Shown: piece by piece, positions 8,101-53,475 of the stretch | Numbering within the stretch: the stretch's first letter is position 1 | Layout of the letters: every line of letters starts with the position of its first letter | DNA from: an uncultured Saprospiraceae bacterium | Lineage (GTDB): Bacteria > Bacteroidota > Bacteroidia > Chitinophagales > Saprospiraceae | Assembly (NCBI GenBank): GCA_937981555.1 | Contig: CALJOK010000024.1 | Span: forward strand, 3,936 to 67,935 | Length of the DNA: 64,000 nt | Direction of reading: 5' to 3' | The notes under the pieces: model-generated | Databases searched by the model: none | Told to the model about the DNA's origin: nothing | The model's input: the letters and a program-made list of their open reading frames with translations, nothing else | Position numbers and translations under genes: made by a program

Positions 8101-11100
8101 GTGGTAGTACATCCGTTGGCATCGCGTACCGTAACTTCATAATTACCATTCGACAATCCTAAAAATTCAGGATTTGATTGAAAATTCATCCCATCCAAAC
8201 TGTATTCTAAACTTCCTGTACCGCCACTTCCGGATGCCGTCAAATCATATTCCAATACGGTAACACTCAAACTTAAAACTGGGGGATTGGTAATATTAAC
8301 GAAATTTGACTGTTGCGTAAATCCATCTGAATCCAATACTGTGACCACATAACTCCCAGCTGATAAATTTGTAAATGTATTGTTATTTTGAAAGACCATT
8401 CCATCCAAACTATATTGAAACGGTGGTATTCCACCTGTGACTGTCACGATAATTGTTCCGTCATTAAAATTATGACAGGTGATATCATTTACTAACAAAG
8501 CTTGAACTATTAATGAATTCACCAAAATTTGCGCGGTAGCCGTTGCCGTACATCCATTGGCATCGCGTACCGTAACTTCATAAATACCATTCGACAATCC
8601 TAAAAACTCAGGACTTGATTGAAAATTCACTCCATCCAAACTGTATTCTAAACTTCCTGTTCCGCCACTTCCCGAAGCCGTCAAATCAGAATTTGATACG
8701 GTAGCAGTCACCAATAATATCGGTGGATTGGTAATTATTATTGAATTTGTTTGTGCGGTAAAACCAAAATTATCCATAACTGTAATAACATATGTCCCTT
8801 CACTTAGATTATCAAAAACAGGACTGTTTTGAAAAGTCATACCATCCAAACTATATTGAAATGGAGAAAAGCTACCATCTGCGGTTACAACAATTTTTCC
8901 ATTATTTTGATTATGACAATCAATGTCATTCTCTAAAACAGCACTAGCACTTAAATCATTTAAGGTAATTTCAATATTAAATGGATGACTAGTTGACCAA
9001 CCTCCATCTGCTGTTTCTATACTGAATTCAAATTCATCAACCTCTTGATTGAGGTTAAAATGCGAATAAGCTACGGCTCCATTTTCAATATCTTGCTGAG
9101 TAAATGTAGCTCCCATTCCAAGGGTCATTCCATTTAATTGTAAATTTCCATATTGGGTGTTTTCCAAAACCATAAAAATAATCTGGTCAGAATTATTGGA
9201 ATTACTATTGGCAGAAAGATGAGTATTATTAATCGTTTTAGTTGCCCCATTTAAAAGCAGTAGCGTTTGATTATTTTGTAATGCGACCTGCCCAGCAGGA
9301 ATATCTTCACAAAGTTCAAGACTCCAGGAATTTAAAACTCCCCCATCAAGGTTAAACCAATCAGTAATAGATAATTCCCATACTTGATTTGAATTTTCTC
9401 CTACAAATGTTGACAAAGGTTCTATAGGTTGAAAAACACCTTCTATAGCATACATTCCACTTGAGGAACAAGTATTTTCCAGTTGCTGTGAAGTTCTTAA
9501 ACCATTATCATCAAACTGAATTTTTAAATTATCTTCCGGACAGCCATAAAAAGTATTAGGTACTCCTGGCCGGTCTAATAGTGGAATCCCCGGCCCGCCA
9601 ATATCAACAGACCTAAAATAGATGTCCAAGTCACCTATATAGGTATGTGACACATCTACATTTAATTTAATTTCAGCAATTTCAAATCCCTCACTTATTG
9701 GTAATTCTGAAACGATCGTATTAACACTTAATGGATCAATGTTCAATGGAACATTTGGACTATCATAAGTGCTACAAAAAAGTGAATTGGTTTGAAAAGA
9801 AAAGATATCGGAGTATTCACCTTCTCCACACGGATTTTCTGCCTTAACTCGCCAATAATATACCGTTAAGGGATTTAGGTTTTCTAAAAAAATTGAATTA
9901 ACAAACATCTCATTCGTTTCGATAATCGCTCCACCAAATCCAGGATTTGTTGCTAACTCATAAATATAACTTGCAGCGTCTGACGAATATGCCCAGGTTA
10001 AATACGTAGACTGTTCAACATTAATTTTTTCATCTTCTGGAAACCATAATTGGATAACATCAGGAATAGAATCATCCACTATTAAATAAACGCCTAGGGT
10101 ATCTGAATTAGTCAATGCAGTACCTACGATCGTTAAAGGGTATCCTCCACCGGGGGAATTTTCTAACCCTGAAATATTTAATTGGGTTGTCCCTGGAGGA
10201 GTGATATTATTTGGGGTAAAATCAGCAGAAGCATTCGGCGGAAGACCAGTAACACTAAGTGAAACCATTTCATCAAACCCTATAAACGATTCAAGATTAA
10301 GATCATAATTAACACTTCCTGAAGCTCCGCACACATCTTGATAGATCAAGTCGCTACTGATAGAAAAATAAGGTTTTACAATTGAAAAATCTACATTTGA
10401 AATATCATAAAAAATATTATTCGCCGCTTCTACTTTCACTCGATTTAGATGACCAACTAGGTCTGGAACTACAATGTCGGCAGAACCAGAATTGCCAACT
10501 CCAGTTGCTAAAACAGTAGGATAAGTCCATCCCCCATCAGTTGATAACAATATATTTACACTTCCACAATTGACGGGTGTGAAGTTGGTATTTGCCACAT
10601 CCCAAGTAATTGTTTTAGTCTCATTGACCATCCAAAAAGTATAATCACTTGGATATGTAACTACGAACGGACCAATATTTTCCACAAAGTTAAGATTAAG
10701 ATCATCCTCTGCGGTACAACCATATCCTATATTATTGTCTCTTACAGTCACTCGAAATTTCATTGATCGTTCTACGCTAGGTAGCTCCTCCCAGAAATAC
10801 CCATAATCTCCTATCAAATCAAATAAACGAGGAAAATAACGGGTAGGGTTATCTGTCGGTGGAAAAGAACGAAAAGCTGGGCCTACCGTTGAAGTTGAAA
10901 TAGGTGGAGCCACCGCAGGTGTATTATCCATTTGTTCCCAACAATAGGTCAAGGGATCACCATCAGGATCACTTGCTGTACTGGTCAATTGAAAAGGAGT
11001 CGAAATGGGTAACCATCTATCACTTCCAGCATCTACTATAGGTGGATTATTATTGGTGCTGACTATTGTCCCACATGAATTAGTTATTGTTGATCCCATC

Positions 11101-39738: not shown

Positions 39739-40215
39739 TTAATCGATATCTGCTATCTGTGCCAGTTGGCCTCTAGTAATTTTTATAAGATCTTCCGGTT
39801 TTAATTTCACCAAAATTCCACGTGTTCCCGCATTGACATAAATGGTTTCAAAATCTGTTGCCGATTCATCCAAGAAAACTGGAAAAGGTTTTTTCATTCC
39901 AATCGGTGAGCATCCTCCACGAATATAACCCGTTAAATTCAATAAATCTTTTACTGGAATCAAAGCAATTTTTTTATTCCCCGAAACCTTAGCAATTGAT
40001 TTTAAATTCAACGTTTGATTGCCATTAATCACAGTAACTAAAACCCCGTTTTTGTCCCCTTTTGCAACTAAGGTTTTAAACACATTTTCTGCTTTAAGAA
40101 AATTGTCCCCTGCAATTTTTTTGACTGACAAATTCTCTTCGTTGTATTCATATTCCAAAGTTTCGTAGGATACCTTTTTTTGATCCAGTAGTCGAAGTGC
40201 GTTCGTTTTTTTCAT
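39739..40215 (-). CDS. ybaK: Cys-tRNA(Pro)/Cys-tRNA(Cys) deacylase YbaK
   Basis: 158 aa. It is collinear with E. coli YbaK as I recall it (ALRLLDQKKVSYE...FKTLV...GYIRGGCSPIG...IYVNAG.RG). Confidence 0.85.
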   Translation of the reverse strand: MKKTNALRLLDQKKVSYETLEYEYNEENLSVKKIAGDNFLKAENVFKTLVAKGDKNGVLVTVINGNQTLNLKSIAKVSGNKKIALIPVKDLLNLTGYIRGGCSPIGMKKPFPVFLDESATDFETIYVNAGTRGILVKLKPEDLIKITRGQLAQIADID

Positions 40216-40339
40216 AAAATGAAAATATTGTTTTTTAATACCAAAAATGAAAATTACAAAATCTTAGATTAGTTTTTCACTCCTATCATTTTTTTCCTAG
40301 CTTTAAAGATTACTACACTAATTATTAAATCCAAATAAA

Positions 40340-41575
40340 ATGCTAAGCAAAATTTTGAAATTCATTGGTATCCTAATTTTATTACTCATCGTTGTTGCAC
40401 TTTTTAATTATGACAGAATAAACAAACTCCGAAAAGTTATCAGCCTTTTTGAAAAAGAGAATATCGTTGAGAATTTTCTACATATGGAAGATATAAATGA
40501 GACAACAACTCTCATAAAAACCTCCTCTCCTACTCGATTGCCCGTCAATATTTCTCATCAACTTCCTAAAAGTTTTTCAAGCAATGGGCAAACTATTGAT
40601 GTACAAAATTTTATGGATCGTTCCTTGACGACCGGATTAATGATTATCCATAAAGACACTATTATTTTTGAAAATTACCTGAGGGGGCTAACTCCTGAAA
40701 CAACTCATATTTCCTGGTCAATGGCGAAATCATTTCTCTCTGGTATGATTGGAATTGCTGTCGAAGAAGGGAAAATCAAAAGTATTCAAGACCAGATTAC
40801 TGATTATTTACCACAGTTTAAGGGGACAGGTTACGAAGGAGTCACTATTAAAGATGCTTTGGAAATGAGTTCTGGAGTGGGATTCAATGAAGACTATTCT
40901 GATTTCAATTCTGACATTAATCGGTTTGGAAGATATTTTGCCTTAGGTCAATCATTCGAAAAATTTGCCTTAAGTCTCCAAAATGCTCGAAAGCCTGGTA
41001 GTTTTAATCATTATGTAAGTATCGACACCCAGGTGCTCGGAATGGTTTTGAAAAAAGCAACTGGGAAAACCATTACCGAATATATGCAAGAAAAAATTTG
41101 GACTCCAATGGGAATGGAAGATGATGCTCAATGGATTATCGATGAGGATGGAATGGAAATGGCGTTAGGTGGATTGAATGCGACAATGAGAGATTATGGG
41201 AAATATGGTTTGTTGTATTTGCATGAAGGAAATTGGTTTGGTAACCAGATTGTTCCACAAAGTTGGGTCAAACAATCGGTAGCAATGGATGGTTCTCATT
41301 TGCAACCTGGTGTCAATGAATTTTCGAGTAGCGATATGGGATATGGTTTTCAATGGTGGATTCCTCAGGAAGCAGATGGTGCTTTTTTAGCTTCAGGAAT
41401 TTATAATCAACACATATATATACAACCGAATCGAGATTTGGTGATTGTGAAGTTATCAGGTAACTATCATTTTAAAACTGATAAAAACTTGGAGAAAAGT
41501 CAGCATATTGACTTTTTTAAAAGTATAGTTCAGCAGTTTCCAAAAAATATAATAGCAGAAAATTCTGTTGAATAA
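40340..41575 (+). CDS. Serine hydrolase (beta-lactamase/PBP4* family) with N-terminal anchor
   Basis: 411 aa with SxxK motif SMAKS in the expected N-terminal third. Confidence 0.85.
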   Translation: MLSKILKFIGILILLLIVVALFNYDRINKLRKVISLFEKENIVENFLHMEDINETTTLIKTSSPTRLPVNISHQLPKSFSSNGQTIDVQNFMDRSLTTGLMIIHKDTIIFENYLRGLTPETTHISWSMAKSFLSGMIGIAVEEGKIKSIQDQITDYLPQFKGTGYEGVTIKDALEMSSGVGFNEDYSDFNSDINRFGRYFALGQSFEKFALSLQNARKPGSFNHYVSIDTQVLGMVLKKATGKTITEYMQEKIWTPMGMEDDAQWIIDEDGMEMALGGLNATMRDYGKYGLLYLHEGNWFGNQIVPQSWVKQSVAMDGSHLQPGVNEFSSSDMGYGFQWWIPQEADGAFLASGIYNQHIYIQPNRDLVIVKLSGNYHFKTDKNLEKSQHIDFFKSIVQQFPKNIIAENSVE

Positions 41576-41593
41576 ATACAAAATGAAAATTGA

Positions 41594-42562
41594 ATGAATA
41601 ATATAAAATTTCCACTTTTCGGTATGCTAGTTTTTTTTTTACTCTTTGGCTGCAAAAAAGATAAAATTGAATACATCGTTGACTCTGATTTCGAGGAATA
41701 TGTTCAACGATTTATTAATGAAGCTGCTGCACGAGGAGTGGAAATTGACTTTAGTGATACAGGTTTATTAATTGAATATTCTGATAGAATTGTGGATGGT
41801 GCAAGCGGATATTGTTATTTAGGTGAGCATCATATCGTAATTGACAAATCAGAGTGGACCGCCTTGACGGATACTCAAAAAGAGTATTTGCTTTTTCACG
41901 AATTGGGACATTGTGAATTGGATCGCCGACATAAAAATGATCAATTTGAAAATTTACTTTGGGAAAGTCTAATGCGCGGCGACCCTTTGGTCGGTACTCA
42001 ACAAAATATCCCAGTTCCGTATTATGGTTTTAGAAAAAACTATTATCGAGATGAATTATTTAACCAAAATACTAGTGCACCTGACTGGAGTAATCCAACA
42101 TTTACCATCGATGATATTTCTGCTGCTGATAAAGAATTACTTATTGAGCGACAAAATGCTCCAAGGGTTTCAGAAGCTCCAGCTGCAGTTGGTGAAAATT
42201 TTGAAATGGAATTTCAGATAAATGGTATCAATGGTGTACCTTTTATTACTGAGTTAACTTGGGGATCAGGTTCACAAAAATTCTTTGTCCGTATTTATAG
42301 GAATTTTGGTACATATATAGGTGCCTTGGAAAATGGCAAAGATCAACAAGTATTTTATCATCCTACAAAAGATGATTTGGATAAAATAACGGTTCGACAA
42401 AAAGATGGGTTGACTCAATTATTTTTTGATGATAGTTTAATTTATCATTTTGATGAATTGTCGGTCGCTCTTTCCAATATTAAATTAGAAGCGAGGAATG
42501 GAAGTGATGTTTTGGCTCCTAGCTTTTCAATTGAAAAATTTATTCTAAGTAAATTATTGTAA
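41594..42562 (+). CDS. Putative zinc-metalloprotease-like lipoprotein
   Basis: 322 aa with lipobox LLFGC and HExxH motif FHELGHCELDRRH. Confidence 0.6.
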   Translation: MNNIKFPLFGMLVFFLLFGCKKDKIEYIVDSDFEEYVQRFINEAAARGVEIDFSDTGLLIEYSDRIVDGASGYCYLGEHHIVIDKSEWTALTDTQKEYLLFHELGHCELDRRHKNDQFENLLWESLMRGDPLVGTQQNIPVPYYGFRKNYYRDELFNQNTSAPDWSNPTFTIDDISAADKELLIERQNAPRVSEAPAAVGENFEMEFQINGINGVPFITELTWGSGSQKFFVRIYRNFGTYIGALENGKDQQVFYHPTKDDLDKITVRQKDGLTQLFFDDSLIYHFDELSVALSNIKLEARNGSDVLAPSFSIEKFILSKLL

Positions 42563-43189
42563 ATTCCGTTCTTGACTTTTTAAGTCGTCATGGATCTTTT
42601 TCAACTCATTAATTCGACTTTCATACATAAAGAATATATATTTCTTCGAAACGAACCAAATTAATCCGAATAATACTGGAATTGAAATTCCAAGAGTTAA
42701 TAATATTACATCCCACCTTGTCAAAATCTCTAGATCATTCCCATTATCTGTGAAGTTTGCCAGTAATCCTAAAATAAAACTTATCGGTACAAATATCCAA
42801 ACAAGAAACTTTAATTTCTTTAAAGCTTTAGTTAAAATTTCATAATACCCCCCAATACTTTCCACCACATTTTGAGAAGAGATAGATTTGATTTCATGAA
42901 TAAATTTTCTAGTTGAAAAATAACTTGATACCACTAATAGTATCGAGCAAGAATACAAAATCCAGATGTAAGGATGGTCTCGCATAAAGTAAAAAATAGC
43001 AAACATCAGTATCACACCTGTTACTGTTTCATTAATTGCATTTCGTTTAATTTCTTGCAATAAATCATTTGATTTTTTGCGAGCCATTTCCAATACTTCA
43101 GGTTCAATTGATTGATAATAAACCTTAGCTTGATCATCTGAAACTTTCCAAATATTCTTTAAATCAAATTCTTCCATATCCTTGGTCAT
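42554..43189 (-). CDS. Membrane protein, candidate anti-sigma partner of the upstream ECF sigma factor
   Basis: 211 aa with 4 predicted TM segments. Its start overlaps the sigma-factor gene by 26 nt. Confidence 0.55.
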   Translation of the reverse strand: MTKDMEEFDLKNIWKVSDDQAKVYYQSIEPEVLEMARKKSNDLLQEIKRNAINETVTGVILMFAIFYFMRDHPYIWILYSCSILLVVSSYFSTRKFIHEIKSISSQNVVESIGGYYEILTKALKKLKFLVWIFVPISFILGLLANFTDNGNDLEILTRWDVILLTLGISIPVLFGLIWFVSKKYIFFMYESRINELKKIHDDLKSQERNLQ

Positions 43190-43685
43190 TTAATAGTTTG
43201 AATAATTGTTTTTTAATTCGAAGTAGTTTTACTCCCACGTGACTAGTGGTTAAACCTATGATTTCAGCAATCTCCTCATATTTTTTTTCATCCAAATGTA
43301 GCAGTATAATTGCCCGCTCATCTTTTCCTAATTGATTGATACATTTATATAGCAATTCTATTTTTTCTTCCTTTTGAAAAACCTGTTCCACTCCTACCCT
43401 ACCCTCATCTGGTATTTTAAAAGAAAAATTATCAATCGGATTAATGGCTTGATTTCGCTTTTGCTTTTTTTGAAAAGTCAAAGCTGTATTTAATACCACC
43501 CGATATATCCATGTTGATATTTTAGACTCTCCTCTAAAACGAGCATAGGATTTCCATAGCTGTATCAACATTTCTTGATATAAATCCTTAAAGTCTGCTT
43601 CCCCTAAAGTGTAAGAGCGAGCTATTTTGTACAAAATACCATTGTACTCATCGATAATATTTTTGAAATCCTTTTCCGTTGGCAT
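43164..43685 (-). CDS. ECF-type sigma-70 family RNA polymerase sigma factor
   Basis: 173 aa with region 2 (DLYQEMLIQLWKSYARF) and region 4 HTH (YEEIAEIIGLTTSHVGVKLLRIKKQL). Confidence 0.85.
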   Translation of the reverse strand: MPTEKDFKNIIDEYNGILYKIARSYTLGEADFKDLYQEMLIQLWKSYARFRGESKISTWIYRVVLNTALTFQKKQKRNQAINPIDNFSFKIPDEGRVGVEQVFQKEEKIELLYKCINQLGKDERAIILLHLDEKKYEEIAEIIGLTTSHVGVKLLRIKKQLFKLLNDQGYGRI

Positions 43686-43807
43686 ATTAGTTAGTATCCT
43701 TTGTCGGTAAATTATTACAACTGGTCGGTAATTAATCTTATTTTATTATTCAGCTGTAATAAAATGATTAAACCGAATACTAATGTAGTGAATCAAAAAA
43801 AAATATC

Positions 43808-44014
43808 ATGAAAAATTCAAACTCAAAGAAATTCACTCCTTTTACTTATTTAGCAATAGTATTCGGATTATTCCTTGCCTTTACAGATGATTACATCGTA
43901 GAGTATTTGAGCAATCGTCCAACTTTGGGGATTATTTTTGTTGTAGTCTTAATCATTGGTTTTATTTACTTCGTAGGAAGTAAAAAATTGAAACATGATT
44001 TTACTAGTAAGTAA
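43808..44014 (+). CDS. Small two-TM membrane protein (hypothetical)
   Basis: 68-aa ORF with two hydrophobic helices; no other support. Confidence 0.4.
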   Translation: MKNSNSKKFTPFTYLAIVFGLFLAFTDDYIVEYLSNRPTLGIIFVVVLIIGFIYFVGSKKLKHDFTSK

Positions 44015-44076
44015 AACAGCTTAACGTTTTAAAGAAACAGCAAAATGCATGAAATAAGCTTTATTATTCATGTATT

Positions 44077-45170
44077 TGCTGTAATTTTACAGCAGATATT
44101 ATATAACACCTTTCCAATAAAGACTCCCTTATCCTAATCAAACCATAACGTAGTGGTCCGATTTAGCTGACTTAAGATTTCATTCCTCTAAGGCTTACTC
44201 TCAACATGATTACAATTTTTAACAAAACTTAATGGTTAAAAACCAAATCACTACTTCCCATTAATTCTATTTCAAAATATTCAAAATCCATTTTTCTGAT
44301 TCCAATCATTCCCATCTCCCAAAACATATTTTTTTATCTATCACTCCTTAATCAAAGGATAAACTGTAATTAACACCTGCTGTATTAATTACAGTTTTTT
44401 ACAGAAAATTACAGCAATTTAATGCAACCACCTTTCCTTATTATCATGTCTTCTACTGAACCGATTTAACTCCTTAGTAACAAGGTGGTACCGAATCGAA
44501 AGAAGTAGTTTCATCAATAACTATAGAGAATATTCCAAAGAATATAATTTCACCACCTAGCACATATAAATAAAATACCAAATATTCTAGGTAGTGAAAT
44601 TTCTGTCGAGTTTATATTTCTACACTTAGGAGAAATATTTGCTGCATCAGCACCCAAGTCCAGCAATTGGAAAATTCTTTTAATTAACTAAACCAATACA
44701 AAAAGAGTCCATAGTTTCATAAAGCTTTAATATTACTGTATTAAATACAGTTTTTTACAGAAAATTACAGCATGTTTATTTTTAACTATATCCTTTTGAC
44801 TTGTAAACTATTATATATTCACGTTTTTAGAATACCTCTCCATAGATTAACCATCTCATCATAAAAGGAACAATTATAATTATTCCAATATCTCAAGTTT
44901 TAAATTGGCAAAAAATGCATTCTCTAAGTTTTAAAAGTTAAGATGGCTTAGTGCCTTCCTTAATTTACTCAGAGTAACTACAATTGAGTTATTTCTTCAT
45001 AAAAGACTAAGCAGAAATTCTATAGCTTAGAACTTGAGATCGAAATAGTATTTTCCAAAAAAATCTGGAAAAAGACTGATTCACCTATTTGCTGTAAAAA
45101 TTACAGATAAATACAGCAAATAATGGAATAAGACAATATTTATACAGATTTTTACAGCATTATACTGTAA
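44077..45170. repeat. Four clusters of TGCTGTA/TACAGCA inverted-repeat boxes upstream of parA (candidate centromere/operator sites)
   Basis: Clusters are at 44077-44094 (perfect palindrome TGCTGTAATTTTACAGCA), 44363-44416, 44735-44772 and 45088-45170. The 26-nt exact direct repeat ACAGTTTTTTACAGAAAATTACAGCA occurs at 44391-44416 and 44747-44772. Confidence 0.8.
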
Positions 45171-45239
45171 AATTGATTTTTAGTCTACTCATCTAGCTAT
45201 ATTCGCTTCATTCTTTCATTATTAAAAACCAATTACCCT

Positions 45240-45884
45240 ATGATTATTGCGGTTACCAACCTCAAAGGCGGTGTCGGAAAAACCACCATAGCTACCAACC
45301 TTGCAGTAAGTTTTGCGCACCGAGATTATGATGTTTGCATTGTCGATACCGATTTAGGACAACAATCCTCAATGGAATGGTCTGGAAATAGAAGTGAAGA
45401 TAGAATCAGGATTCCTGTTTTTGGCGTAAGTATCAAACAACTCAATAAAGAAGTGGAAGGATTACAAGAGAAATATGACATTGTCATTATTGATGGAACA
45501 CCCCAATTGTCTGAGTTGGCCGATAGAACTATTCTAGCGAGCGATTATTTAGTCATTCCATTGATGCCAAGTATTTATGATTTTAGAGGCTTTGAGAACT
45601 TCCTAGAAAGGTTTGAGCAAATCCGTGGATTGAAAGAAGCAAGTGGAGGACAAGTAAAAGCTTTGGTTGTGTTGAATCGAGTGGTTTCCAAAACTAATGT
45701 GAGTAAAGAAATTAAAGAAGCCGTAAAAGAATATGATGTTACGTTACTAAAAGGAACGATCAATAGTCGAGTCGCTTATGCAGATTCCGCAACTGACGGA
45801 CTTGGAGTAGTGGAATACAAAGACGCAAAAGCTAAAAAGGAAATCAATAAACTAACTGATGAACTTGAAAAAATATTAAGTTAG
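45240..45884 (+). CDS. parA: ParA-family partition ATPase (small, type Ib-like)
   Basis: 214 aa with deviant Walker A motif NLKGGVGKTT at the N-terminus and a DTD motif. Confidence 0.9.
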   Translation: MIIAVTNLKGGVGKTTIATNLAVSFAHRDYDVCIVDTDLGQQSSMEWSGNRSEDRIRIPVFGVSIKQLNKEVEGLQEKYDIVIIDGTPQLSELADRTILASDYLVIPLMPSIYDFRGFENFLERFEQIRGLKEASGGQVKALVVLNRVVSKTNVSKEIKEAVKEYDVTLLKGTINSRVAYADSATDGLGVVEYKDAKAKKEINKLTDELEKILS

Positions 45885-45885
45885 T

Positions 45886-45977
45886 TACTGTAAAAGATGT
45901 AATATTTCTGTAAAATGCTGTACTATTTACAGAAATATACTTATTTTACAGCGTAATGCTGTATTATTACAGCAAAT
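45886..45977. repeat. Box cluster in the parA / RHH-gene spacer
   Basis: ATATTTCTGTAAA (45902-45914) pairs with TTTACAGAAATAT (45926-45938). TACAGCGTAATGCTGTA lies at 45947-45963, with further CTGTA/TACAG boxes nearby. Confidence 0.8.
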
Positions 45978-46002
45978 TTATTCAAAGAAAATTTTCAATA
46001 TT

Positions 46003-46245
46003 ATGCCAATTAAAAAGAAAATCGCTTCAAAGAAGATTACCAAAGCAATGGATGCTGAAAGCCAAGAGAAAGCTTTAATTCAGCTACAAAAAAAAGATAA
46101 AAAGAAAAACGTGCAACGAGTAACCGTTGACTTCCCACAATATCTTTATGAAAAAATGAAGTTGGAAACTGAAGATACTGGTCAAACTTTAAAAGGATTT
46201 ATCGTTGGATTGGTAAGAGAACATTTTACTCGGAAGGAAGGGTAG
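46003..46245 (+). CDS. Ribbon-helix-helix protein, candidate ParG-like centromere-binding partner of ParA
   Basis: 80 aa with a basic disordered N-terminus followed by VTVDFPQYLYEKMKLE...LKGFIVGLVREHF (beta-strand plus two helices). It lies directly downstream of parA. Confidence 0.6.
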   Translation: MPIKKKIASKKITKAMDAESQEKALIQLQKKDKKKNVQRVTVDFPQYLYEKMKLETEDTGQTLKGFIVGLVREHFTRKEG

Positions 46246-46301
46246 TAGTTGGATTTAGAACGTAACTGGAATCTTTGAATCCCGGTATAGAATCAAACCT
46301 C

Positions 46302-46341
46302 AAAAGACCTTGCAGATTTTTATAGTTTGCAAGGTCTTTTT
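46302..46341 (+). terminator. Rho-independent terminator after the RHH gene
   Basis: AAAAGACCTTGCA (46302-46314) pairs with TGCAAGGTCTTTT (46328-46340), followed by T. Confidence 0.75.
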
Positions 46342-46590
46342 GCATGTTATGGAACTCCCTCTGTTTTTAATCAGTTTTTACAAACAAGCAACAATTCTAT
46401 TTTTCTATATAAAGCGATTTAAAGCAGTTTTCTTATCTCCAATTGAGATATTCCTCAATTCTTATGTTAATGCGCTAAAATCGCCTAAAAATCATTTTAA
46501 AAGTGCTTCCTATCTTCCTGCTTAGAGTACAATATTGATTTTTAATCTTATTCGAATCCTTAATCCAATTTAGATTGCCGATTATCAAAA

Positions 46591-47432
46591 ACAGCATATT
46601 GCTGTATAAATAATGCATATTGCTTGCTAATCTCTATATTTAAAGCATTATCACAGCAAAATACAGCAATATTAAAGAATCAGAATAAAGCTAAATATGA
46701 CACCAAATGGAATAGCAATACTACATTTCCAATTAGAATTGAAATGTAGACGCTTAAACTAAATCTAGAAATTACATCGATTGGGGAGATTTAAAGAAAA
46801 GAGTAAATGTTTAATTGGAACTATAATCTTATGAATAACCCTCTTTCTGAAAAATTAAAACAGAGGTCAAAAAACATTTTCCCTAAACTTAAAATCCTTC
46901 AAAACAGTTAGAATCAAAGCTCATCAAAAAACTACAGCAATTAACTTTAAATATGCTGTAGTTTGCTGTAAATTTCATTAAACCCAATTATCTAGAAAAT
47001 ATGCTCAAACAAAAATTGTTATTTCCCAACTGATGTCTTTACGTAACTTCTCCATGTTTAACTAAAAAATTATTTCTCCTAATTCATAAAAGATCTCAAA
47101 ACTCAACATTATATTTTAAATTCAAAAATACTGTTTTGCCTTTCTTAGAGAATTTAAAAGGAGAAAGGGAAAATCAATTAAACTTCAATACTTTGTAGCC
47201 AAAAAGCATATTGCTGTAATTATACAGTTTTTTACAGCAATATGCTTTATCTGGTATTCAAAGATCCATTGGCTAAAACTTAGCCAATCAAATTAAAAAT
47301 ATATTTTTTAAACACCTCGTCATTATTCGCCATCTATTTAATCGTTAATTTTCCAATATTTTGAGGAGAGGATAATTGGCAATACCCTCATTATTGCTGT
47401 ACTTTACTGTATTTTTACAGCAAAGTACAGCA
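46591..47432. repeat. Four further clusters of TGCTGTA/TACAGCA boxes downstream of the par genes
   Basis: Clusters are ACAGCATATTGCTGT at 46591-46605 with ACAGCAAAATACAGCAA at 46653-46669, then 46931-46972, then 47203-47219 / 47232-47248 (17-bp perfect arms AAAGCATATTGCTGTAA), then 47395-47405 / 47422-47432. Confidence 0.8.
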
Positions 47433-47859
47433 GTAGTGAGATTTAAGCTTTTAATTCCTTTTATTAAAAGGAATCTTGAGTTTTGGTTTTTAGTTAATTA
47501 AATTCGCGAAAATCAGCTGATTTTCTTTTAGAAAAAATAATCACAACCTTGATAACAGCTTTTTTAGGTAACTCTTTTAATTTTTTTAAAATGATTTTTA
47601 ATTTGACCAAGAGGAGCCAATCAATCTAAATCTCAAAAAAGCATTTTTAGCGTTTCAAGGATCACTAATATTTGTTGTAAAACTCTTGAGACATTAGTTC
47701 CTAAAAATCCTTTGAGTTCGTTTAAAATGTTTCACAAGAAGAAAATTCCAGCTAAGTTGAAAGTTTCTGAGAAGTAAAGATCATCTGTTTATACAGAAGG
47801 GTATTAAGAAAAAAAGAAAATTAAAAAGGTCTTAAATTACTATTTAAGACTTTTAAAGT

Positions 47860-47972
47860 TTTTTTAATTCTTTTAATATTATTTGTAGCGATTTAAAAAT
47901 TAATTTGAGATAGTTCTAGAACTTAATGATAGCAAGCGTTTCAGCAGATTATATTATATTTTTCTTTTTCTT
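47860..47972. other. AT-rich tract abutting the iterons (candidate DNA-unwinding element)
   Basis: About 110 nt of almost pure A/T immediately left of the first tightly phased iterons. Confidence 0.3.
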
Positions 47973-48805
47973 AAGAAGGGACAGATTTAGGGATATTAAG
48001 GGGACAGGTTTAGGGCTGAAAGAGGGACTTAATCAGTAAAAATGGGGGACAGACTTAGGGAGCTAAAAGGGACACAAAAGGGGGAATGAGCTGAAATGAT
48101 TATACAATCATTAAAAAGGGGACAAAAAAAGGGCAAATTAAATTAATCTGATTTGCAGTTTTTTGAAAATACCTTATACCCTTAATAAAGGGACATTATC
48201 AGGGAAATTGTATTTAGGTTTCTTTTTTTTATTGGTAAAAGTGGTTTTAAGAGGGGATAGAGAAATAATTAATATTAAAAAGGGGACAAAAAAGGGGGCC
48301 AACTATTACTTGGACCGATTTTAAAGAGAAGAAGTCTCTTTTTTTTTACTAAAAGGGGACAGAAAAGGGGAGTAATCAGTTGAAATCCATTTTTTTTTGT
48401 TTAAAAAGAATATGATTTGAATGATTTCGGGTATATTTTTTAAAAAGGGACAAAAAAAGGGCCCAAGTATTAGTTGAACATGTCAAAAGCTCTCAGAAGC
48501 GTAATTTATTAGATTAAAAGGGACATGAATAGGGATAAAGTATAAGTTTATGATCCATTTTTGAGTTGAATTGAGGTGATTTTTCTAAAAAGGACTAAAA
48601 CAGGGTAAGTGTAATCCTTTTTATGTCCCTTTTTATAATTACACTTTCCTTCTGCTAGTACAGTTACATGCGAGTAGATTAAATTTTGGATATTTAAGAG
48701 GGACATAATCAGGGGAATATTATAACACATATATATAGCATGATTTTTTAAAATATAAAAGATGTGGAAACATTTAGGGGGACAAAGCTTTTACTAGTCC
48801 CCTTC
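47973..48805 (+). repeat. Iteron array (about 15 direct copies of AAAGGGGACAnAnnnAGGG plus inverted half-sites), candidate oriV
   Basis: Copies start near 47973, 47997, 48019, 48040, 48065 (22-25 bp phasing), then 48111, 48184, 48247, 48274, 48349, 48440, 48513, 48584, 48692 and 48771. An inverted half-site lies at 48622-48635, and the inverted pair AGGGGAC...GTCCCCT lies at 48776-48803. Confidence 0.8.
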
Positions 48806-48811
48806 ATTTTT

Positions 48812-48819
48812 TATATTTG
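48812..48819 (+). promoter_or_regulatory. Candidate -7 promoter box TATATTTG for the rep gene
   Basis: Exact TAnnTTTG match, 47 nt upstream of the ATG at 48866 and just right of the inverted iteron pair. Confidence 0.4.
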
Positions 48820-48865
48820 CTTAAATTTTAATATTCACCACTATGTTTCAGCTTGATCAAAAACT

Positions 48866-50068
48866 ATGAAGCAGAAAAAAGTTAAACAAATAGCTCGTAT
48901 TGAAAATAGGTTTATTTTCAATGCAAGATACCAACTAAGTGCTCGGGAGCAAAAGATAATCTTATATCTAATGTCCAACCTAGACCCATTAGCACAAAAT
49001 GATTTTCATAAGCAGATAGTTTCGGTTAAAGAATTGGAGAACCTCCTCAAAGGGGAAGATAAGAAATGGGGTGGCTTGTACAAAGAGATGAATGATTTTA
49101 GCGCGCGAATTATTTCCAAATATATTTCTTTTGATTCTGATTTTTTGGTTGGAGGAAAACCATTACGTGGAGTCATCAGCTGGTTTCAATCGGTGATTCC
49201 TGTCGAAACTGAAAATGGGGAAGTGGCTTTAGAATTTATGTTTTCTGAAAGACTTAAACCTTTTTTATTGCAATTGAGTGAATATGCTAAAATTCACCCG
49301 TTGGATGTAGCTCCGATGAAAAGTGGTTTTGCGATTAGAATGTATCAAGTTTTTAAAGCGGAACGAGATCGGATGCGGAAACATACCCAAACCAATGCCA
49401 TGGTTTACACTTTGGATGAGTTGAAAAAAATGCTAGGCATCGAAGGAAAATATAAGGTGTTGAAAGATTTTAGGAGAAGAGTGCTCGATGTCGTGGAACG
49501 AGAAATAAATACTCATAGTCCAAGTGTTCAAGTTAAGTATGAATATATTAAAACTTCCCGTCGGGTAACAGGAGTGCGGTTTCTAATTTTTGATAAACCG
49601 AAGGATAAACCAAAAGCTACCAATGAAAAGAGTGGGGAGGCAACTAATTATGCTCCATCAAAAGAAGAGTTGGAAGTTTTGTCTTACTCTCAAACTAAAG
49701 CTTATAATATGTTGGTGAAATTTGGAGTATATGAAGGTATCGCTTACAAACAAATTGTGCCGGTAATTACGGGTGGCGAAATTGACGGATTCGAAGATTA
49801 TTTTGTCAAGCATGCTCTTTCGCATTTTAAGAAATGGGCAAGAGTTCAACCTAATAAAGCAATTAGTGCAGCAACATTTGTGAATTGGTGGACAGAGGGG
49901 AAAGTGTTCAATGCAGACAATGATGTGTTTTGGAAAATTCAGGAAAAGATCAATCACGATAAAAAGAAATTGGACGAAGCTACCTTTGACAATCGTATGG
50001 AAGCGAAGAATATGACGAAGAAAGAATTTATTGAATGGTACAAAGGGACACAGTCAAAAATGATGTAA
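48866..50068 (+). CDS. Plasmid replication initiator (Rep_3 / RepB-like, iteron-binding type)
   Basis: 400 aa. The N-terminus IENRFIFNARYQLSAREQKIILYLMS matches the conserved opening of Rep_3 initiators as I recall it. The gene lies directly downstream of the iteron array. Confidence 0.8.
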   Translation: MKQKKVKQIARIENRFIFNARYQLSAREQKIILYLMSNLDPLAQNDFHKQIVSVKELENLLKGEDKKWGGLYKEMNDFSARIISKYISFDSDFLVGGKPLRGVISWFQSVIPVETENGEVALEFMFSERLKPFLLQLSEYAKIHPLDVAPMKSGFAIRMYQVFKAERDRMRKHTQTNAMVYTLDELKKMLGIEGKYKVLKDFRRRVLDVVEREINTHSPSVQVKYEYIKTSRRVTGVRFLIFDKPKDKPKATNEKSGEATNYAPSKEELEVLSYSQTKAYNMLVKFGVYEGIAYKQIVPVITGGEIDGFEDYFVKHALSHFKKWARVQPNKAISAATFVNWWTEGKVFNADNDVFWKIQEKINHDKKKLDEATFDNRMEAKNMTKKEFIEWYKGTQSKMM

Positions 50069-50107
50069 CGACTGATTTTAGTCGGTAGGAAAAATCAAAT
50101 AAATTCT

Positions 50108-50165
50108 AAAGGCATCGAATCCGATGCCTTTAAAAAAGTTCAATTCCGTCGAACTCGACGGAATT
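50108..50165 (+). terminator. Two tandem GC-containing hairpins after rep
   Basis: AAAGGCATCG (50108-50117) pairs with CGATGCCTTT (50122-50131). AATTCCGTCGA (50142-50152) pairs with TCGACGGAATT (50155-50165). Confidence 0.5.
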
Positions 50166-50194
50166 AAAAAATTAAAGAAACACTATATTTTCAA

Positions 50195-51055
50195 ATGGCA
50201 AAACTCAAACCTTCCACCATAATTGTTCAAGGAAATGAAATTAGACTCACTTCCAAAAATGAAGAATCATATATTTCACTAACTGATATTGCAAAAGGTT
50301 TTGGAGATTCAAAAACGATGATTCAAAATTGGATGAGAACCAGAAGCACCGTTGAATTTTTAGGAGTTTGGGAAAATATGAACAATGATGATTTTAACCG
50401 CATCGAATTCGAGGCGATTAAGAATGCCTCCGGAAGTAATGTATTTTCCCTTTCTCCAAAAAAATGGATCGAAACAGTTAGTGCAGTTGGAATGACTTCC
50501 AAATCTGGAAGATATGGAGGAGGAACTTTTGCCCATTCTGAAATCGCATCTGAATTTGCTTCATGGTTAAGTCCATCTTTTAAATTATTTGTTTTTCAAG
50601 AATTAAATAGATTAAAAGAAGAGGAAGCTAAACGCAATAATTTAGAATGGAATGTTCATCGGATTATGTCGAAAGCCAATTTTCATATTCATACGGAAGC
50701 AGTCAAAAAGCATCTCGTTCCACCTCGGATTAAGAATACTAAAGCAGAAGGCATCGTTTATGCGAATGAAGCTGATATTTTAAATGTAGCATTATTTGGA
50801 ATGACTGCGAAGCAATGGAAAATTCAGAACCCAGAAATGACTGGAAATATGCGAGATAATGCCACGACGGAGCAATTACTTGTTTTGTCAAATTTGCAAA
50901 GCTTGAATTCCAAATTGATGGAGTGGGGGAGTGATGCGGAACAACGATTGGATATTTTAAATAAAACGGCGATTGACCAAATGGGAGTTTTGACAATGAG
51001 TGCATCTTTGAAGCAATTACCAAAAGAAAAGAAACAGCTAAAAAGTGGGAAGTAA
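50195..51055 (+). CDS. KilA-N domain-containing DNA-binding protein
   Basis: 286 aa. The N-terminal 130 aa (IRLTSKNEESYISLTDIAKGF...GTFAHSEIASEFASWLSPSFKLFV) fit the KilA-N pattern, and the C-terminal region is helical. Confidence 0.8.
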   Translation: MAKLKPSTIIVQGNEIRLTSKNEESYISLTDIAKGFGDSKTMIQNWMRTRSTVEFLGVWENMNNDDFNRIEFEAIKNASGSNVFSLSPKKWIETVSAVGMTSKSGRYGGGTFAHSEIASEFASWLSPSFKLFVFQELNRLKEEEAKRNNLEWNVHRIMSKANFHIHTEAVKKHLVPPRIKNTKAEGIVYANEADILNVALFGMTAKQWKIQNPEMTGNMRDNATTEQLLVLSNLQSLNSKLMEWGSDAEQRLDILNKTAIDQMGVLTMSASLKQLPKEKKQLKSGK

Positions 51056-51056
51056 A

Positions 51057-51491
51057 ATGATCAAACTTTCAAAGGAACAAGTCAATAGTATTGGGCAAGA
51101 TTTGGAGATGGGGATGAAATGTTATGTTCACAAAACTACAGGCGTGGCTACAAGCGTACCAAATGATATAAGTGAACATGATGATAATTTTGAAGTATGG
51201 GAAGAGGAACTAAAAGAGGTGAAACAAAACCCAGGTCAATATATTCTAATAGATCAAATGCAAAGTTCTGATTCCTTTAGAATTATGCGAAGATTTTTGG
51301 GAAAAGTTTCCAATTCTAAAATACGAGAAAAATTAATGATCGCCATTTCTCAAAATAAACCATTTCGAAAATTTCGAGATATTTTGGATTACAATGGTGA
51401 CGTTTTGCAAGATTGGTATGACTTCAAGCAAGAGCAAATAGAACGCTATGTTAATAGCTGTTTAGATGGTAATTCTGAAGAAGAAGAGTGA
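51057..51491 (+). CDS. UPF0158 family protein
   Basis: The ATG at 51057 lies 1 nt after the KilA-N stop. SDSFRIMRRFL...KPFRKFRDILDYNGDVLQDWYDFKQEQIERYV resembles the UPF0158 core. The ORF-track GTG start at 51045 is less likely. Confidence 0.7.
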   Translation: MIKLSKEQVNSIGQDLEMGMKCYVHKTTGVATSVPNDISEHDDNFEVWEEELKEVKQNPGQYILIDQMQSSDSFRIMRRFLGKVSNSKIREKLMIAISQNKPFRKFRDILDYNGDVLQDWYDFKQEQIERYVNSCLDGNSEEEE

Positions 51492-51495
51492 AAAG

Positions 51496-51531
51496 AAAGT
51501 TCCAAGATTCATTGAGTCTTGGAACTTTTTT
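51496..51531 (+). terminator. Rho-independent terminator after the KilA-N/UPF0158 pair
   Basis: AAAGTTCCAAGA (51496-51507) pairs with TCTTGGAACTTT (51517-51528), followed by TTT. Confidence 0.75.
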
Positions 51532-51670
51532 CATTTAAAGATAGTTCTTTTGCCATCACTAACCATTTCAATAAAAAGACAATGTAATTTTCATTTTACT
51601 TCATTTTGAAAAATCGTCGCTACCCTCTAGCGACTTATCTTTTTATTTATAGGAATTAAATTTATTAAAA

Positions 51671-52357
51671 ATGGATTCACGAAAGTACGGTCGTACTTTC
51701 CATTATCCTTTTTCGCCAGGAACGACAAGTGACGATAGAATTAATCATGACTATTGGTCAGATTTGCAATCTATTGAACAAATTGTCCACACCGAGAAAT
51801 TGGATGGAGAAAATACGTGCCTCAATCAATATGGCGTTTTTGCCAGATCCCATGCTGCCCCAACTCGGCACCCTTGGGCCAATTATTTAAAAGAACGATG
51901 GCATTTGATCAAAAATGAATTAGGTGATCTGGAGATTTTTGGAGAAAATATCTATGCTATTCATTCTATAAAATATTTGGAAATCGAACACCACTTTTAC
52001 GTTTTTGCAATCAGGCATTTGGATAAATGGCTTTCTTGGGAAGAAGTAAAATTCTATGCAGCATTGCTAGATTTTCCAATTGTCCCTGAGTTAAAAATGC
52101 AAAAGCCAAACGATCAGAAATTTTTGGAGAAAACAATTTTAAATTTTGTAAATCAACCGAGCGTTTTTCAATCTTTGGATATTCATACTCGAGAAGAATG
52201 TACGATGGAAGGAATCGTTTCTAGAAACGTTAATGAATATTTAGTAAAAGATTTTAAGAAAAATGTTTTCAAATATGTCCGAAAAGATCATGTTAAAACT
52301 GATGCACATTGGACTCGAAATTGGAAACGCGCTCCGTTAAAATGGGAAATATCATGA
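51671..52357 (+). CDS. ATP-dependent RNA ligase family protein (nucleotidyltransferase domain only, Rnl2/PF09414-like)
   Basis: 228 aa with covalent nucleotidyltransferase motifs I EKLDGEN, III EIFGEN, IV MEGIVSR and V FKYVRKDH. Confidence 0.8.
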   Translation: MDSRKYGRTFHYPFSPGTTSDDRINHDYWSDLQSIEQIVHTEKLDGENTCLNQYGVFARSHAAPTRHPWANYLKERWHLIKNELGDLEIFGENIYAIHSIKYLEIEHHFYVFAIRHLDKWLSWEEVKFYAALLDFPIVPELKMQKPNDQKFLEKTILNFVNQPSVFQSLDIHTREECTMEGIVSRNVNEYLVKDFKKNVFKYVRKDHVKTDAHWTRNWKRAPLKWEIS

Positions 52358-53475
52358 GTAATAAAATTTGGAAAATAATAGAAAACAAAGAGTGGCAAAA
52401 TGTAAGGAATTCATTTTCATGGATTCGGGATATGGAAGAAGTGCCACAAGATAAAGTGCATCACGCCGAAGGTGATGTTGCTACTCATACTCGTATGGTG
52501 GTAGAAGCATTGTTGAATTTACCAGCATTCCAAGGTTTGGAAGAGCAAGAAAAAGAGATTCTTTTTGCCGCTGCACTTTTGCATGATGTTGAAAAACGAT
52601 CAACCACGGTTCATGAATCTGATGGAAGAATCACTTCACGAGGACATGCTCGGAAAGGAGAATTTACTGCTCGAACGATTTTGTACAAAGATATTTCGAC
52701 TCCATTTCTGATTCGAGAAGCGGTGGCAAAATTGGTTCGAAATCATGGTTTACCGATTTGGATTTTTGAAAAGGAAAACCCGAGGAAGACACTTTTGCAA
52801 ACTAGTTTGGAAGTGAATTTAATGCACTTAGCTATTTTAGCAAAAGCCGATATGTTGGGAAGAATTTGTCAGGATCAATCAGAAATGTTGTATCAAATTC
52901 AATTATTCGAAGAATTTTGCAAGGAGCAAGACTGCTTTGGAAAAATGAAAATCTTTGGTTCTGATTTAGGACGATATCAATTTTTCCAAAAAGAAGAAGC
53001 AAGCCCTGACTATGTCCCTTTTGAAAATAATACTTTCGAAGTGATCATGCTGTCAGCTTTGCCAGGAACAGGGAAGGATTTTTTTATCAAAAAAAATTAT
53101 CCAAATGTTTCTGTTGTTTCTTTAGATGCTATTAGAAGGGAAAATAAAATTAGTCCAACCGATAAAAAGGGCAATGGAAAAGTCATTCAAATGGCAAAAG
53201 AACAAGCAAGAGTTTTTTTAAGAAAAAAAGAATCCTTCATTTGGAATGCAACGAATATTACAAGAAATCTGCGAACACCGTTGATTGATCTTTTTCAAAG
53301 TTATGGAGCAAAAACGAAGTTAATTTACCTCGAAGTTTCTTATAAAAAATTGATCCAGCAAAATAGAAATCGAGATTTTCCAGTCCCTCAAAAAGTAGTG
53401 GAAAAGATGATTTCGAAAATAGAAATTCCATCAAAATGGGAAGCTCCAATTTTAGAAATACATGTTTCAGACTAG
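52354..53475 (+). CDS. HD-Pnk-type bifunctional end-healing enzyme (N-terminal HD phosphoesterase plus C-terminal P-loop polynucleotide kinase)
   Basis: HD motifs are HHAEGDVATHT and AALLHDVEK. The Walker A motif LPGTGKD lies in the C-terminal third. The ATG at 52354 overlaps the ligase stop codon (ATGA). The ORF track offers upstream in-frame starts at 52309 and 52342. Confidence 0.8.
   Translation: MSNKIWKIIENKEWQNVRNSFSWIRDMEEVPQDKVHHAEGDVATHTRMVVEALLNLPAFQGLEEQEKEILFAAALLHDVEKRSTTVHESDGRITSRGHARKGEFTARTILYKDISTPFLIREAVAKLVRNHGLPIWIFEKENPRKTLLQTSLEVNLMHLAILAKADMLGRICQDQSEMLYQIQLFEEFCKEQDCFGKMKIFGSDLGRYQFFQKEEASPDYVPFENNTFEVIMLSALPGTGKDFFIKKNYPNVSVVSLDAIRRENKISPTDKKGNGKVIQMAKEQARVFLRKKESFIWNATNITRNLRTPLIDLFQSYGAKTKLIYLEVSYKKLIQQNRNRDFPVPQKVVEKMISKIEIPSKWEAPILEIHVSD

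Follow-up and report, generated by a model that had tools for sequence, protein, structure and literature searches.

Why should a small partition operon be surrounded by nine separate clusters of one short repeat? The question is raised by a 64-kb stretch of DNA from an uncultured Saprospiraceae bacterium (positions 3,936 to 67,935 of contig CALJOK010000024.1, here called the window, whose coordinates are used throughout), in which a parA gene and a gene for an 80-aa protein lie within a field of inverted TGCTGTA/TACAGCA boxes. Type Ib partition systems, made up of ParA and a ribbon-helix-helix (RHH) protein, are widespread, and an open question is how enough dimers are loaded from a short centromere (PMC9499535). 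RHH ParBs bind promoter-overlapping parS arrays and, because they cannot spread, load a limited number of dimers; the fit of these systems to the diffusion-ratchet model has been described as unclear (PMC9499535). We determined the statistics, phasing and grammar of the boxes, their conservation against a saturated neutral background, their co-variation with the small protein and the identities of the genes, and from these observations we infer box binding, autoregulation, centromere function and a role for the spacing. We are fairly confident that the locus serves to maintain a plasmid-like replicon, large and of low copy number, in a marine Saprospiraceae bacterium, and that in it a type Ib cassette with a multi-cluster centromere/operator lies beside a Rep3/iteron origin.

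Boxes around the par genes are clustered and phased

The original prediction, made from the DNA letters and their open reading frames (ORFs), described nine clusters of TGCTGTA/TACAGCA boxes at 44077–47432, and the counts bear this out. The heptamer occurs 25 times on the two strands of the 64 kb, and 21 of these copies fall within the field, whereas dinucleotide-preserving shuffles hold 4.1 copies on average and at most 11, none of 100 reaching 25. The four copies outside are singletons at chance level. The true unit is shorter and commoner than the heptamer: the core CTGTA/TACAG is present in 38 copies between 43.7 and 47.5 kb (10 per kb, versus 1.1 per kb in the rest of the window), 36 of which fall in the nine clusters at the coordinates first predicted. 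The consensus of 36 aligned boxes is w-w-T-G-CTGTA-A, with a context of A/T only. An extended form of the box, GCATATTGCTGTA, had also been reported; it is real, and consists of a degenerate aACAGCA box opposite a TGCTGTA box.

Of 26 pairs of adjacent cores within the clusters of the window, 19 are spaced at 9–10 bp, and phased core pairs are absent from the rest of the window, save for a 16-bp pair in a protein-coding tandem repeat. The box grammar is strict across six loci, the window and five syntenic relatives. In the pooled set, neighbours in the same orientation are 10 bp apart in 53 of 67 cases and convergent neighbours 9–10 bp apart in 40 of 42, while divergent neighbours are 12 or 22–23 bp apart in 14 of 15. 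A lone box noted at 43753–43759 is present (AGCTGTAA) but lies at chance density, where the promoters of the divergent sigma factor and small membrane-protein genes are situated. An exact-string search, which would miss diverged copies elsewhere, found a string identical to CAGCTGTAAT from this lone box only in L004.

Boxes are conserved while spacers drift

Loci related to the window (L001–L014), all from Saprospiraceae metagenome-assembled genomes, were compared with it. Five of them, L001–L005, are syntenic and encode ParA proteins 94–96% identical to that of the window. Alignment by blastn extends at 77–86% identity over the flanking genes (40001–43970), parA and the small gene (45088–46245), and the origin and rep (47802–51050), but in the regions between these, 43970–45086 and 46250–47800, only the box clusters align. 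Four-fold degenerate sites of parA are 44–54% identical between the window and these loci, against a random expectation of 28%, indicating that neutral DNA is near saturation between the lineages. Since the clusters are conserved on this background, selection acts on the boxes, and the spacer sequences behave as neutral DNA. In the alignable intergenic arrays that flank parA every core is invariant, with the surrounding positions varying. That boxes would be kept while spacers drift had been proposed as a check against related replicons, and this is the pattern in all five syntenic loci, whose spacers are unalignable.

The layout is also kept, with five to nine clusters in L001–L005, save for one contig that breaks off shortly after the small gene and shows four. 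In each locus two to four clusters lie ahead of parA, starting after the small membrane-protein gene, and one lies between the par genes; where the contig reaches, two to four more come after the terminator, and iterons and rep then follow in L003–L005 (the L001 and L002 contigs end before them). Orthologous clusters can be recognised by their form, such as the orders -++ and ++-- or the long split cluster 6. Cluster centres are 204–718 bp apart in the five related loci, and 188–378 bp apart within each flank of the window, where the total span is 3.36 kb. In L001, two adjacent clusters have identical flanks and weakly similar spacers (z 3.5 in global and 1.9 in local alignment), which suggests a recent duplication; new clusters probably arise by local duplication of this kind.

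The nine clusters and the par operon

Cluster 1 (44077..44094) consists of two convergent boxes, TGCTGTAA-TT-TTACAGCA, just 3' of a conserved gene for a 68-aa membrane protein. It had been called a perfect 18-bp palindrome, but has only 8-bp arms around a non-complementary TT; the orthologous clusters of L001, L003, L004 and L005 are larger, with four to five boxes. Cluster 2 (44364..44416) has five boxes (++---), of which four follow one another at exactly 10 bp, and is 92% identical over 37 nt to a cluster of L004 whose flanks cannot be aligned. The four boxes of cluster 3 (44736..44772; +---) are also at 10-bp steps, and this cluster is 91% identical to cluster 2 over 44 nt, exactly 356 bp away. 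An exact repeat at 44391 and 44747, given before as 26 nt, is real and in fact 27 nt long, and lies inside this 44-nt block. Clusters at 44378, 44734 and 45090 follow one another in steps of exactly 356 bp.

Cluster 4 (45092..45169) has six boxes in two sub-arrays directly 5' of the parA promoter, and its box cores are invariant in the six aligned loci (the window and L001–L005). Its last box abuts a TTG, and the conserved element TATATTCG comes next (45198..45205, + strand), 35 nt before the parA ATG. This promoter-like element has one mismatch to TAnnTTTG, the Bacteroidota -7 promoter consensus; it is invariant in the window and L001–L005, and a perfect TAnnTTTG stands at the same place in distant relatives. 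Cluster 4 is probably the operator of parA, through which the operon would be autoregulated. Cluster 5 (45888..45974), with seven boxes between parA and the 80-aa gene, likewise has cores invariant across the six loci and may also be an operator, as it precedes that gene. An array of short repeats that adjoins the par operon and overlaps its promoter, as in type Ib systems, is present in cluster 4, together with cluster 5 before the 80-aa gene; the field as a whole is unlike the compact, all but contiguous type Ib arrays of about 60–100 bp found in parH, in pCXC100 and in every parS of pSM19035.

The par operon is followed by an intrinsic terminator (46302..46341, + strand) with a 17-bp stem, a 5-nt loop and a T-run, and an energy of -22.5 kcal/mol (z -5.9). 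A strong hairpin of unrelated sequence (-16 to -33 kcal/mol) occupies the corresponding place in L001, L003, L004 and L005, about 50–100 nt after the small gene, from which we take the operon to end there. The structure has been retained through full sequence turnover.

Beyond the terminator, cluster 6 (46591..46669) has an outer TGCTGTA and TACAGCA 60 bp apart with the degenerate boxes ACAGCA, TGCTTGCTA and CACAGCA between them; it forms the sole block of 46250–47800, of about 90 nt, that is alignable with L003, L004 and L005 (75–77%). Cluster 7 (46933..46970) has three boxes in the order -++, as does its L001 orthologue, and clusters are found near the same place in L004 (+++) and L005 (-+++). 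Three boxes of cluster 8 (47203..47248) lie inside perfect inverted arms of 17 nt, AAAGCATATTGCTGTAA and TTACAGCAATATGCTTT, with a 12-nt spacer, just as first described. Cluster 9 (47394..47432), with four boxes (++--), is the last before a conserved origin block that starts at about 47802.

ParA is ParF-like and the 80-aa protein is a likely RHH protein

The parA gene (45240..45884, + strand) encodes a ParF-like Walker ATPase of 214 aa, which places it in the class of small Walker ParA proteins (about 200–300 aa) without an N-terminal helix-turn-helix (HTH). Its Walker A motif, KGGVGKT at residues 9–15 within NLKGGVGKTT at 7–16, is of the deviant type with the signature lysine, and matches to the Pfam families AAA_31, CbiA and ParA cover the whole protein, with a further match to MipZ. 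The closest solved relative is ParF of TP228 (4dzz; residues 2–212 against 3–204, E 4.9e-22). By these sequence features the product is a type Ib, ParF-like partition ATPase.

The 80-aa centromere-binding candidate (46003..46245, + strand) starts 118 nt after parA and is followed by the terminator; a gene downstream of parA is syntenic in 14 related loci. The protein has a Lys-rich tail predicted to be disordered, a conserved helix at residues 18–32, the predicted strand QRVTVDF and two helices, an RHH-like layout. A Pfam search returned no family at threshold, and none of 28 homologues has a Pfam annotation, the few that are named being called hypothetical. Sub-threshold matches to Pfam RHH_5 (E 0.002–0.03) are found in 21 of the 28, always at residues 38–71, and the family profile matches the Arc repressor in register with a weak E of 0.5. 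An hhalign comparison with ParG (PDB 1p94) is also in register, with an E of 1.5e-3 but a probability of 17%, and pairs QRVTVDF...GLVREHF with KRVNVNF...QLVDNWL of ParG; with omega of pSM19035, represented by an unconfirmed sequence, only a 22-column helix match was obtained (E 0.047). The AlphaFold2 (AF2) model has helices at 18–32, 46–59 and 63–79 and a mean pLDDT of 76, the two C-terminal helices scoring 87–91 and the Lys-rich residues 1–17 scoring 54–65. These signals are weak but consistent, and the protein is likely an RHH protein. The helix QEKAL..LQ is invariant across the homologues and probably contacts ParA.

Box sequence changes together with the small protein

In distant relatives (ParA 50–77% identical) phased arrays of other boxes occupy the same positions, 5' of parA and 5' of the small gene, with further clusters downstream. 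A change of box goes along with a change in the strand of the small protein that is predicted to read the DNA, giving five specificity classes. QRVTVDF accompanies CTGTA in the window and L001–L008, VRVTIDF accompanies GCAGTA/CAGTA in L010–L012, HKTTIEI accompanies CTAYA in L013 and KRLSSDL accompanies AAACAT in L014; L009 is an exception, with YRHTIDV and CTGTA-like boxes. The original prediction took the boxes to be the centromere and operator sites of the small protein in a type Ib system, and this is supported by the ParF match, the weak RHH signals, the conservation of the boxes and this co-variation, from all of which we infer binding. L009 is a 589-kb contig (CAWCXR010000003.1) in a bin labelled 'uncultured cyanobacterium', with a ParA 72% identical to that of the window; its cassette could be there through mis-binning, or on a megaplasmid, or as an integrated copy. 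At about 309–400 in L012, 4999 nt upstream of parA, a relaxed box pattern caught densely packed GAGTA/TACTC repeats (GGAGTAATGAGTACGGAGTTACTCCCTCATTACTCATTACTCATTACTCC), which probably have no connection with the par boxes.

A more remote comparison is provided by pHALHY03 of Haliscomenobacter hydrossis (NC_015513.1; loci L018/L020), a complete 92-kb plasmid from the same order, whose ParA is 45% identical to that of the window and whose parA is followed by a gene for a 152-aa protein with an RHH-like C-terminus. The 12-mer TATAAGTATAAA is present there in five copies at 67397–67998, spaced 68–361 bp apart; it is confined to the 1-kb non-coding region 5' of parA and occurs nowhere else on the plasmid. 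This confinement is the replicon-wide test that is not possible on the window alone. A 21-bp iteron-like repeat, TCTAATTTTGTTACA, adjoins the rep gene of pHALHY03, and neither repeat is listed in the feature table of this plasmid as PLSDB distributes it, with protein-coding genes only.

The distal clusters could instead be regulatory, the small protein acting as an omega- or KorA-like global repressor for which they serve as operators, as transcription roadblocks or insulators protecting the par operon and the origin, or as a titration sink to buffer autoregulation, so that only the promoter-proximal arrays are centromeric. L008 and L010–L012 have extra clusters directly 5' of other genes (Bro-N family genes and an HsdM methylase), which indicates an additional omega-like regulator role; omega acts in this way at PcopS, Pdelta and Pomega (PMC9499535), and the field of the window fills the whole gap between the par terminator and the origin. 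However, in the window and L001–L005 the distal clusters have no conserved ORF or TAnnTTTG element after them, and rep has its own TATATTTG element at 48812 with no boxes near it. We regard this explanation as unlikely, and it partly overlaps with the centromere reading, because the operator and the centromere of RHH proteins are normally the same sites.

The spacers carry no recognisable message

The 26 spacers of the six loci are 148–651 bp long, with cluster centres 188–718 bp apart, and none is shorter than about 150 bp. The upstream part of the field had been thought to consist of decayed tandem units of about 350 bp, but in both global and local alignments the spacers among clusters 2–4 of the window resemble one another no better than shuffled sequence does (z about 0–1), and the flank similarity between CCGATTTAGCT and CCGATTTAACT, taken as a trace of such units, is an isolated 11-mer. 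As stated before, there is no credible ORF in 44077–47432 besides parA and the 80-aa gene. Conserved coding potential in the spacers, which the original prediction had named as evidence against itself, was not found in a six-frame tblastn of all non-coding DNA against the relatives; the sole conserved coding signal is that of the 68-aa membrane protein just outside the field, and matches in several frames at the clusters reflect conservation at the DNA level. No helical periodicity of AA/TT, as a test for intrinsic curvature, was seen in the 26 spacers (|z| <=1.5).

Each cluster might be the operator of a small transcription unit, with the spacers encoding lineage-specific small RNAs or micro-peptides that act in copy number control, as antisense RNAs or in a toxin-antitoxin-like manner. 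Two non-coding stretches are kept in six lineages, and their lengths of 1.2 kb and 1.55 kb are unusual in a bacterial replicon; the box itself contains TTG, the Bacteroidota -33 element. Against this, the spacers are dissimilar both between orthologous loci and among themselves, and there is no conserved six-frame product. Rfam, searched at a permissive E-value, gave nothing but spurious matches of miRNA- or snoRNA-like type, for the most part where the clusters are palindromic or at the terminator hairpin, and also just upstream of the field. No TAnnTTTG is present on the + strand anywhere in 44015–47800, so that the distal clusters lack a -7 element after them. A sigma-70-type promoter scan gave fewer matches than shuffles, a consensus that is uninformative for a Bacteroidota host. 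The suggestion that the spacers encode RNAs thus finds no conservation, no Rfam family and no promoter motif, and we consider a set of transcription units very unlikely. That the spacers nonetheless persist despite the deletion bias of bacterial genomes suggests selection on the spacing and not on the sequence.

The adjacent origin and the replicon

The boxes could also take part in replication control, as auxiliary Rep-binding sites, handcuffing sites or a second origin. The field adjoins a Rep3 origin, and the order of par, a cluster field of about 1 kb and Rep3 recurs in L006 and L014. The Rep3 initiator gene (48866..50068, + strand; Pfam Rep3_N 3e-20, Rep3_C 2e-19) is preceded by iteron-like repeats, GGGACAnnnnnnGGG, with about 12 GGGACA-type copies over 800 bp (47976..48790, + strand) in variants such as GGGACAGATTTAGGG and GGGACAAAAAAAGGG; an initiator with both Rep3_N and Rep3_C and with direct-repeat iterons upstream is the arrangement of a Rep3/iteron replicon. 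The non-coding block 47802–48865, unlike the par spacers, is 77–81% identical to L003–L005, the identity extending through 51050, and with its iterons is probably an extended oriV. The iterons, conserved within the block 47802–48860, are a different repeat from the boxes; in addition, boxes of CTGTA type or of the cognate type accompany parA and the small gene without an adjacent rep3 in L008 and L010–L012, and the box sequence tracks the small protein, the only protein used in this comparison. A role of the boxes in replication control is highly improbable.

The E. coli LexA SOS box is CTGT-N8-ACAG, and CTGT...ACAG inverted pairs bear a superficial likeness to this gamma-proteobacterial site, but the boxes have next to no chance of being host-factor sites such as LexA-type SOS boxes, as their inverted pairs are CTGT-N6/N7-ACAG, many are direct repeats at 10 bp, and they are confined to the par locus and change with the par cassette among related hosts; LexA SOS box identity was rejected on these grounds of spacing, direct repeats and location.

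As a whole, the window is most plausibly a piece of a large plasmid or of a secondary replicon. Upstream of the field are genes for an extracytoplasmic function (ECF) sigma factor and for the 68-aa membrane protein, an ORF with a hydrophobic core (43808..44014) just 5' of the first cluster that is always the upstream boundary of the field. The 68-aa protein is conserved in L001, L002, L004 and L005 (53–81% identity); in the relatives a second small ORF of similar size lies beside its gene, and the one in L004 matches the 68-aa protein weakly. Downstream of rep, 50195–53475 encodes KilA-N, UPF0158, RNA ligase family and HD plus AAA_33 (kinase-like) proteins, conserved in L003–L005 up to about 51050; the RNA ligase family and HD/AAA_33 proteins look like an RNA-repair cassette on a plasmid backbone. 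The rest of the window contains accessory metabolism genes, and no tRNA was found in it. A 2388-aa ORF at 5154–12320 (- strand) has tandem repeats at 6436–8216, with at least five copies of a unit of 441 bp (147 aa), which were detected through periodic CTGTA pairs and matches to TAAGTTTG; it is probably a repeat-domain surface protein.

Exact-protein look-ups found the 80-aa protein on only two tiny marine metagenome scaffolds, and no record of the ParA. Neither a DNA search of the region nor tblastn of the 80-aa protein gave a match in the PLSDB plasmids.

Comparison with known partition systems

With the 80-aa protein taken as a likely RHH protein, the proteins and the logic of this locus are those of known type Ib systems. 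What sets it apart is the 10-bp pitch, how many clusters there are, spacers of 150–650 bp that behave as neutral, a spread over both flanks as far as the origin, and the phylum. Type Ib par2 of pB171 reportedly has two centromeres, parC1 and parC2, that flank parA-parB and engage in pairing or bridging, so that arrays are present on both sides of the genes as they are here; its two compact arrays of 6-bp repeats immediately flank the genes, unlike the nine dispersed clusters of the window. Several separated centromere sites act together in the phage-plasmid N15 (sop) and in multi-parS chromosomes, but these are single palindromes many kilobases apart, bound by HTH proteins (ParB/SopB) that spread and condense the DNA.

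Among the closest systems is parFGH of TP228, whose parH spans about 100 bp without interruption (PMC3130281) and has 4-bp boxes and 4-bp spacers (PMC3130281, PMC5016525). ParA is nearest to ParF over its full length, the small protein has a basic N-terminus that is predicted to be flexible, its C-terminal domain can be placed in register, with weak support, on the RHH domain of ParG (KRVNVNF against QRVTVDF), and in both systems arrays of short boxes in direct and inverted orientation, separated by AT-rich spacers, are found 5' of the operon and overlap its promoter. The differences are the core of 5–7 bp, the 10-bp pitch, and the nine clusters over 3.4 kb on both flanks, 150–350 bp apart within each flank. 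In delta/omega of pSM19035 an RHH protein is both centromere binder and repressor, several separate parS arrays of direct and convergent repeats overlap promoters or lie near them on one replicon, and it matters that an array has four repeats or more (PMC9499535). Its heptads are contiguous, with a 7-bp pitch that wraps the helix, at three promoter-linked sites per plasmid repeat unit, whereas the boxes here have a 10-bp pitch on one face and most clusters are without an associated promoter or gene. In the pCXC100 system the RHH fold of the centromere-binding protein was likewise unrecognisable from sequence, and dimers bind tandem repeats cooperatively, but its nine 9-bp direct repeats form a single uninterrupted block (PMC3074162), unlike these dispersed clusters. 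The scale of the field, first noted as unusual, is indeed so beside a parH of about 100 bp (PMC3130281), the nine contiguous repeats of pCXC100 (PMC3074162) and the contiguous heptads of pSM19035 (PMC9499535). No description of such a multi-cluster field was found in the literature searched.

A proposed dispersed centromere

Our preferred reading of the field is an extended nucleoprotein scaffold. The 80-aa protein would be ParG/omega-like, with a basic flexible tail, a ParA-contact helix and an RHH-like DNA-binding domain, and its dimers would bind the CTGTA boxes (T-G-CTGTA-A). The 10-bp pitch would place neighbouring dimers on one face of the helix, mostly in convergent order (forward then reverse). 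The centromere would consist of all nine clusters, with about 36–40 boxes over 3.4 kb that extend on both flanks of the operon as far as the origin. RHH centromere-binding proteins lack a CTPase domain and do not spread along DNA, and many clusters would then amount to a hard-wired loading of many dimers. The result would be a large, multivalent partition complex able to stimulate ParA bound to the nucleoid and to travel on the ParA gradient. In this view the spacers would matter only as spacing, by allowing looping or bridging between clusters or by setting them apart as separate ParA-contact units. More tentatively, and as a possibility that could well prove wrong, the multi-cluster field may be an evolved substitute for ParB spreading, in which about 40 sites are grouped in 5–9 clusters, with selection on the length but not on the sequence of the spacers keeping these about 150 bp or more from one another.

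Several observations weigh against this reading of the locus. A number of clusters have only two or three perfect cores, and ParA activation in pSM19035 needs at least four contiguous repeats (PMC9499535), so that some of the clusters may not work as centromere units. The strand-box relation is not one to one, as L009 has a different strand (YRHTIDV) and yet CTGTA-type boxes. The RHH assignment stays under every curated threshold, the AF2 monomer models the putative strand at residues 38–44 as coil, and Foldseek of this monomer against the PDB gave no significant match. A null Foldseek result is usual for a single chain of an intertwined dimer. The window covers only 64 kb of the replicon, and further clusters elsewhere are possible.

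The cassette is present in at least six species-level lineages in which the number of clusters is maintained, and it documents a plasmid maintenance module of Saprospiraceae whose plasmids are absent from PLSDB, by DNA match or by small-protein match. If the field does stand in for spreading, it would supply the valency with which a diffusion-ratchet moves a replicon of about 100 kb, and spacer length and cluster number, besides box sequence, would be functional parameters of a bacterial centromere. The box and protein classes have diverged in step. The family supplies orthogonal protein/box pairs, and it constitutes a natural experiment on centromere valency and geometry in ParA-driven transport.

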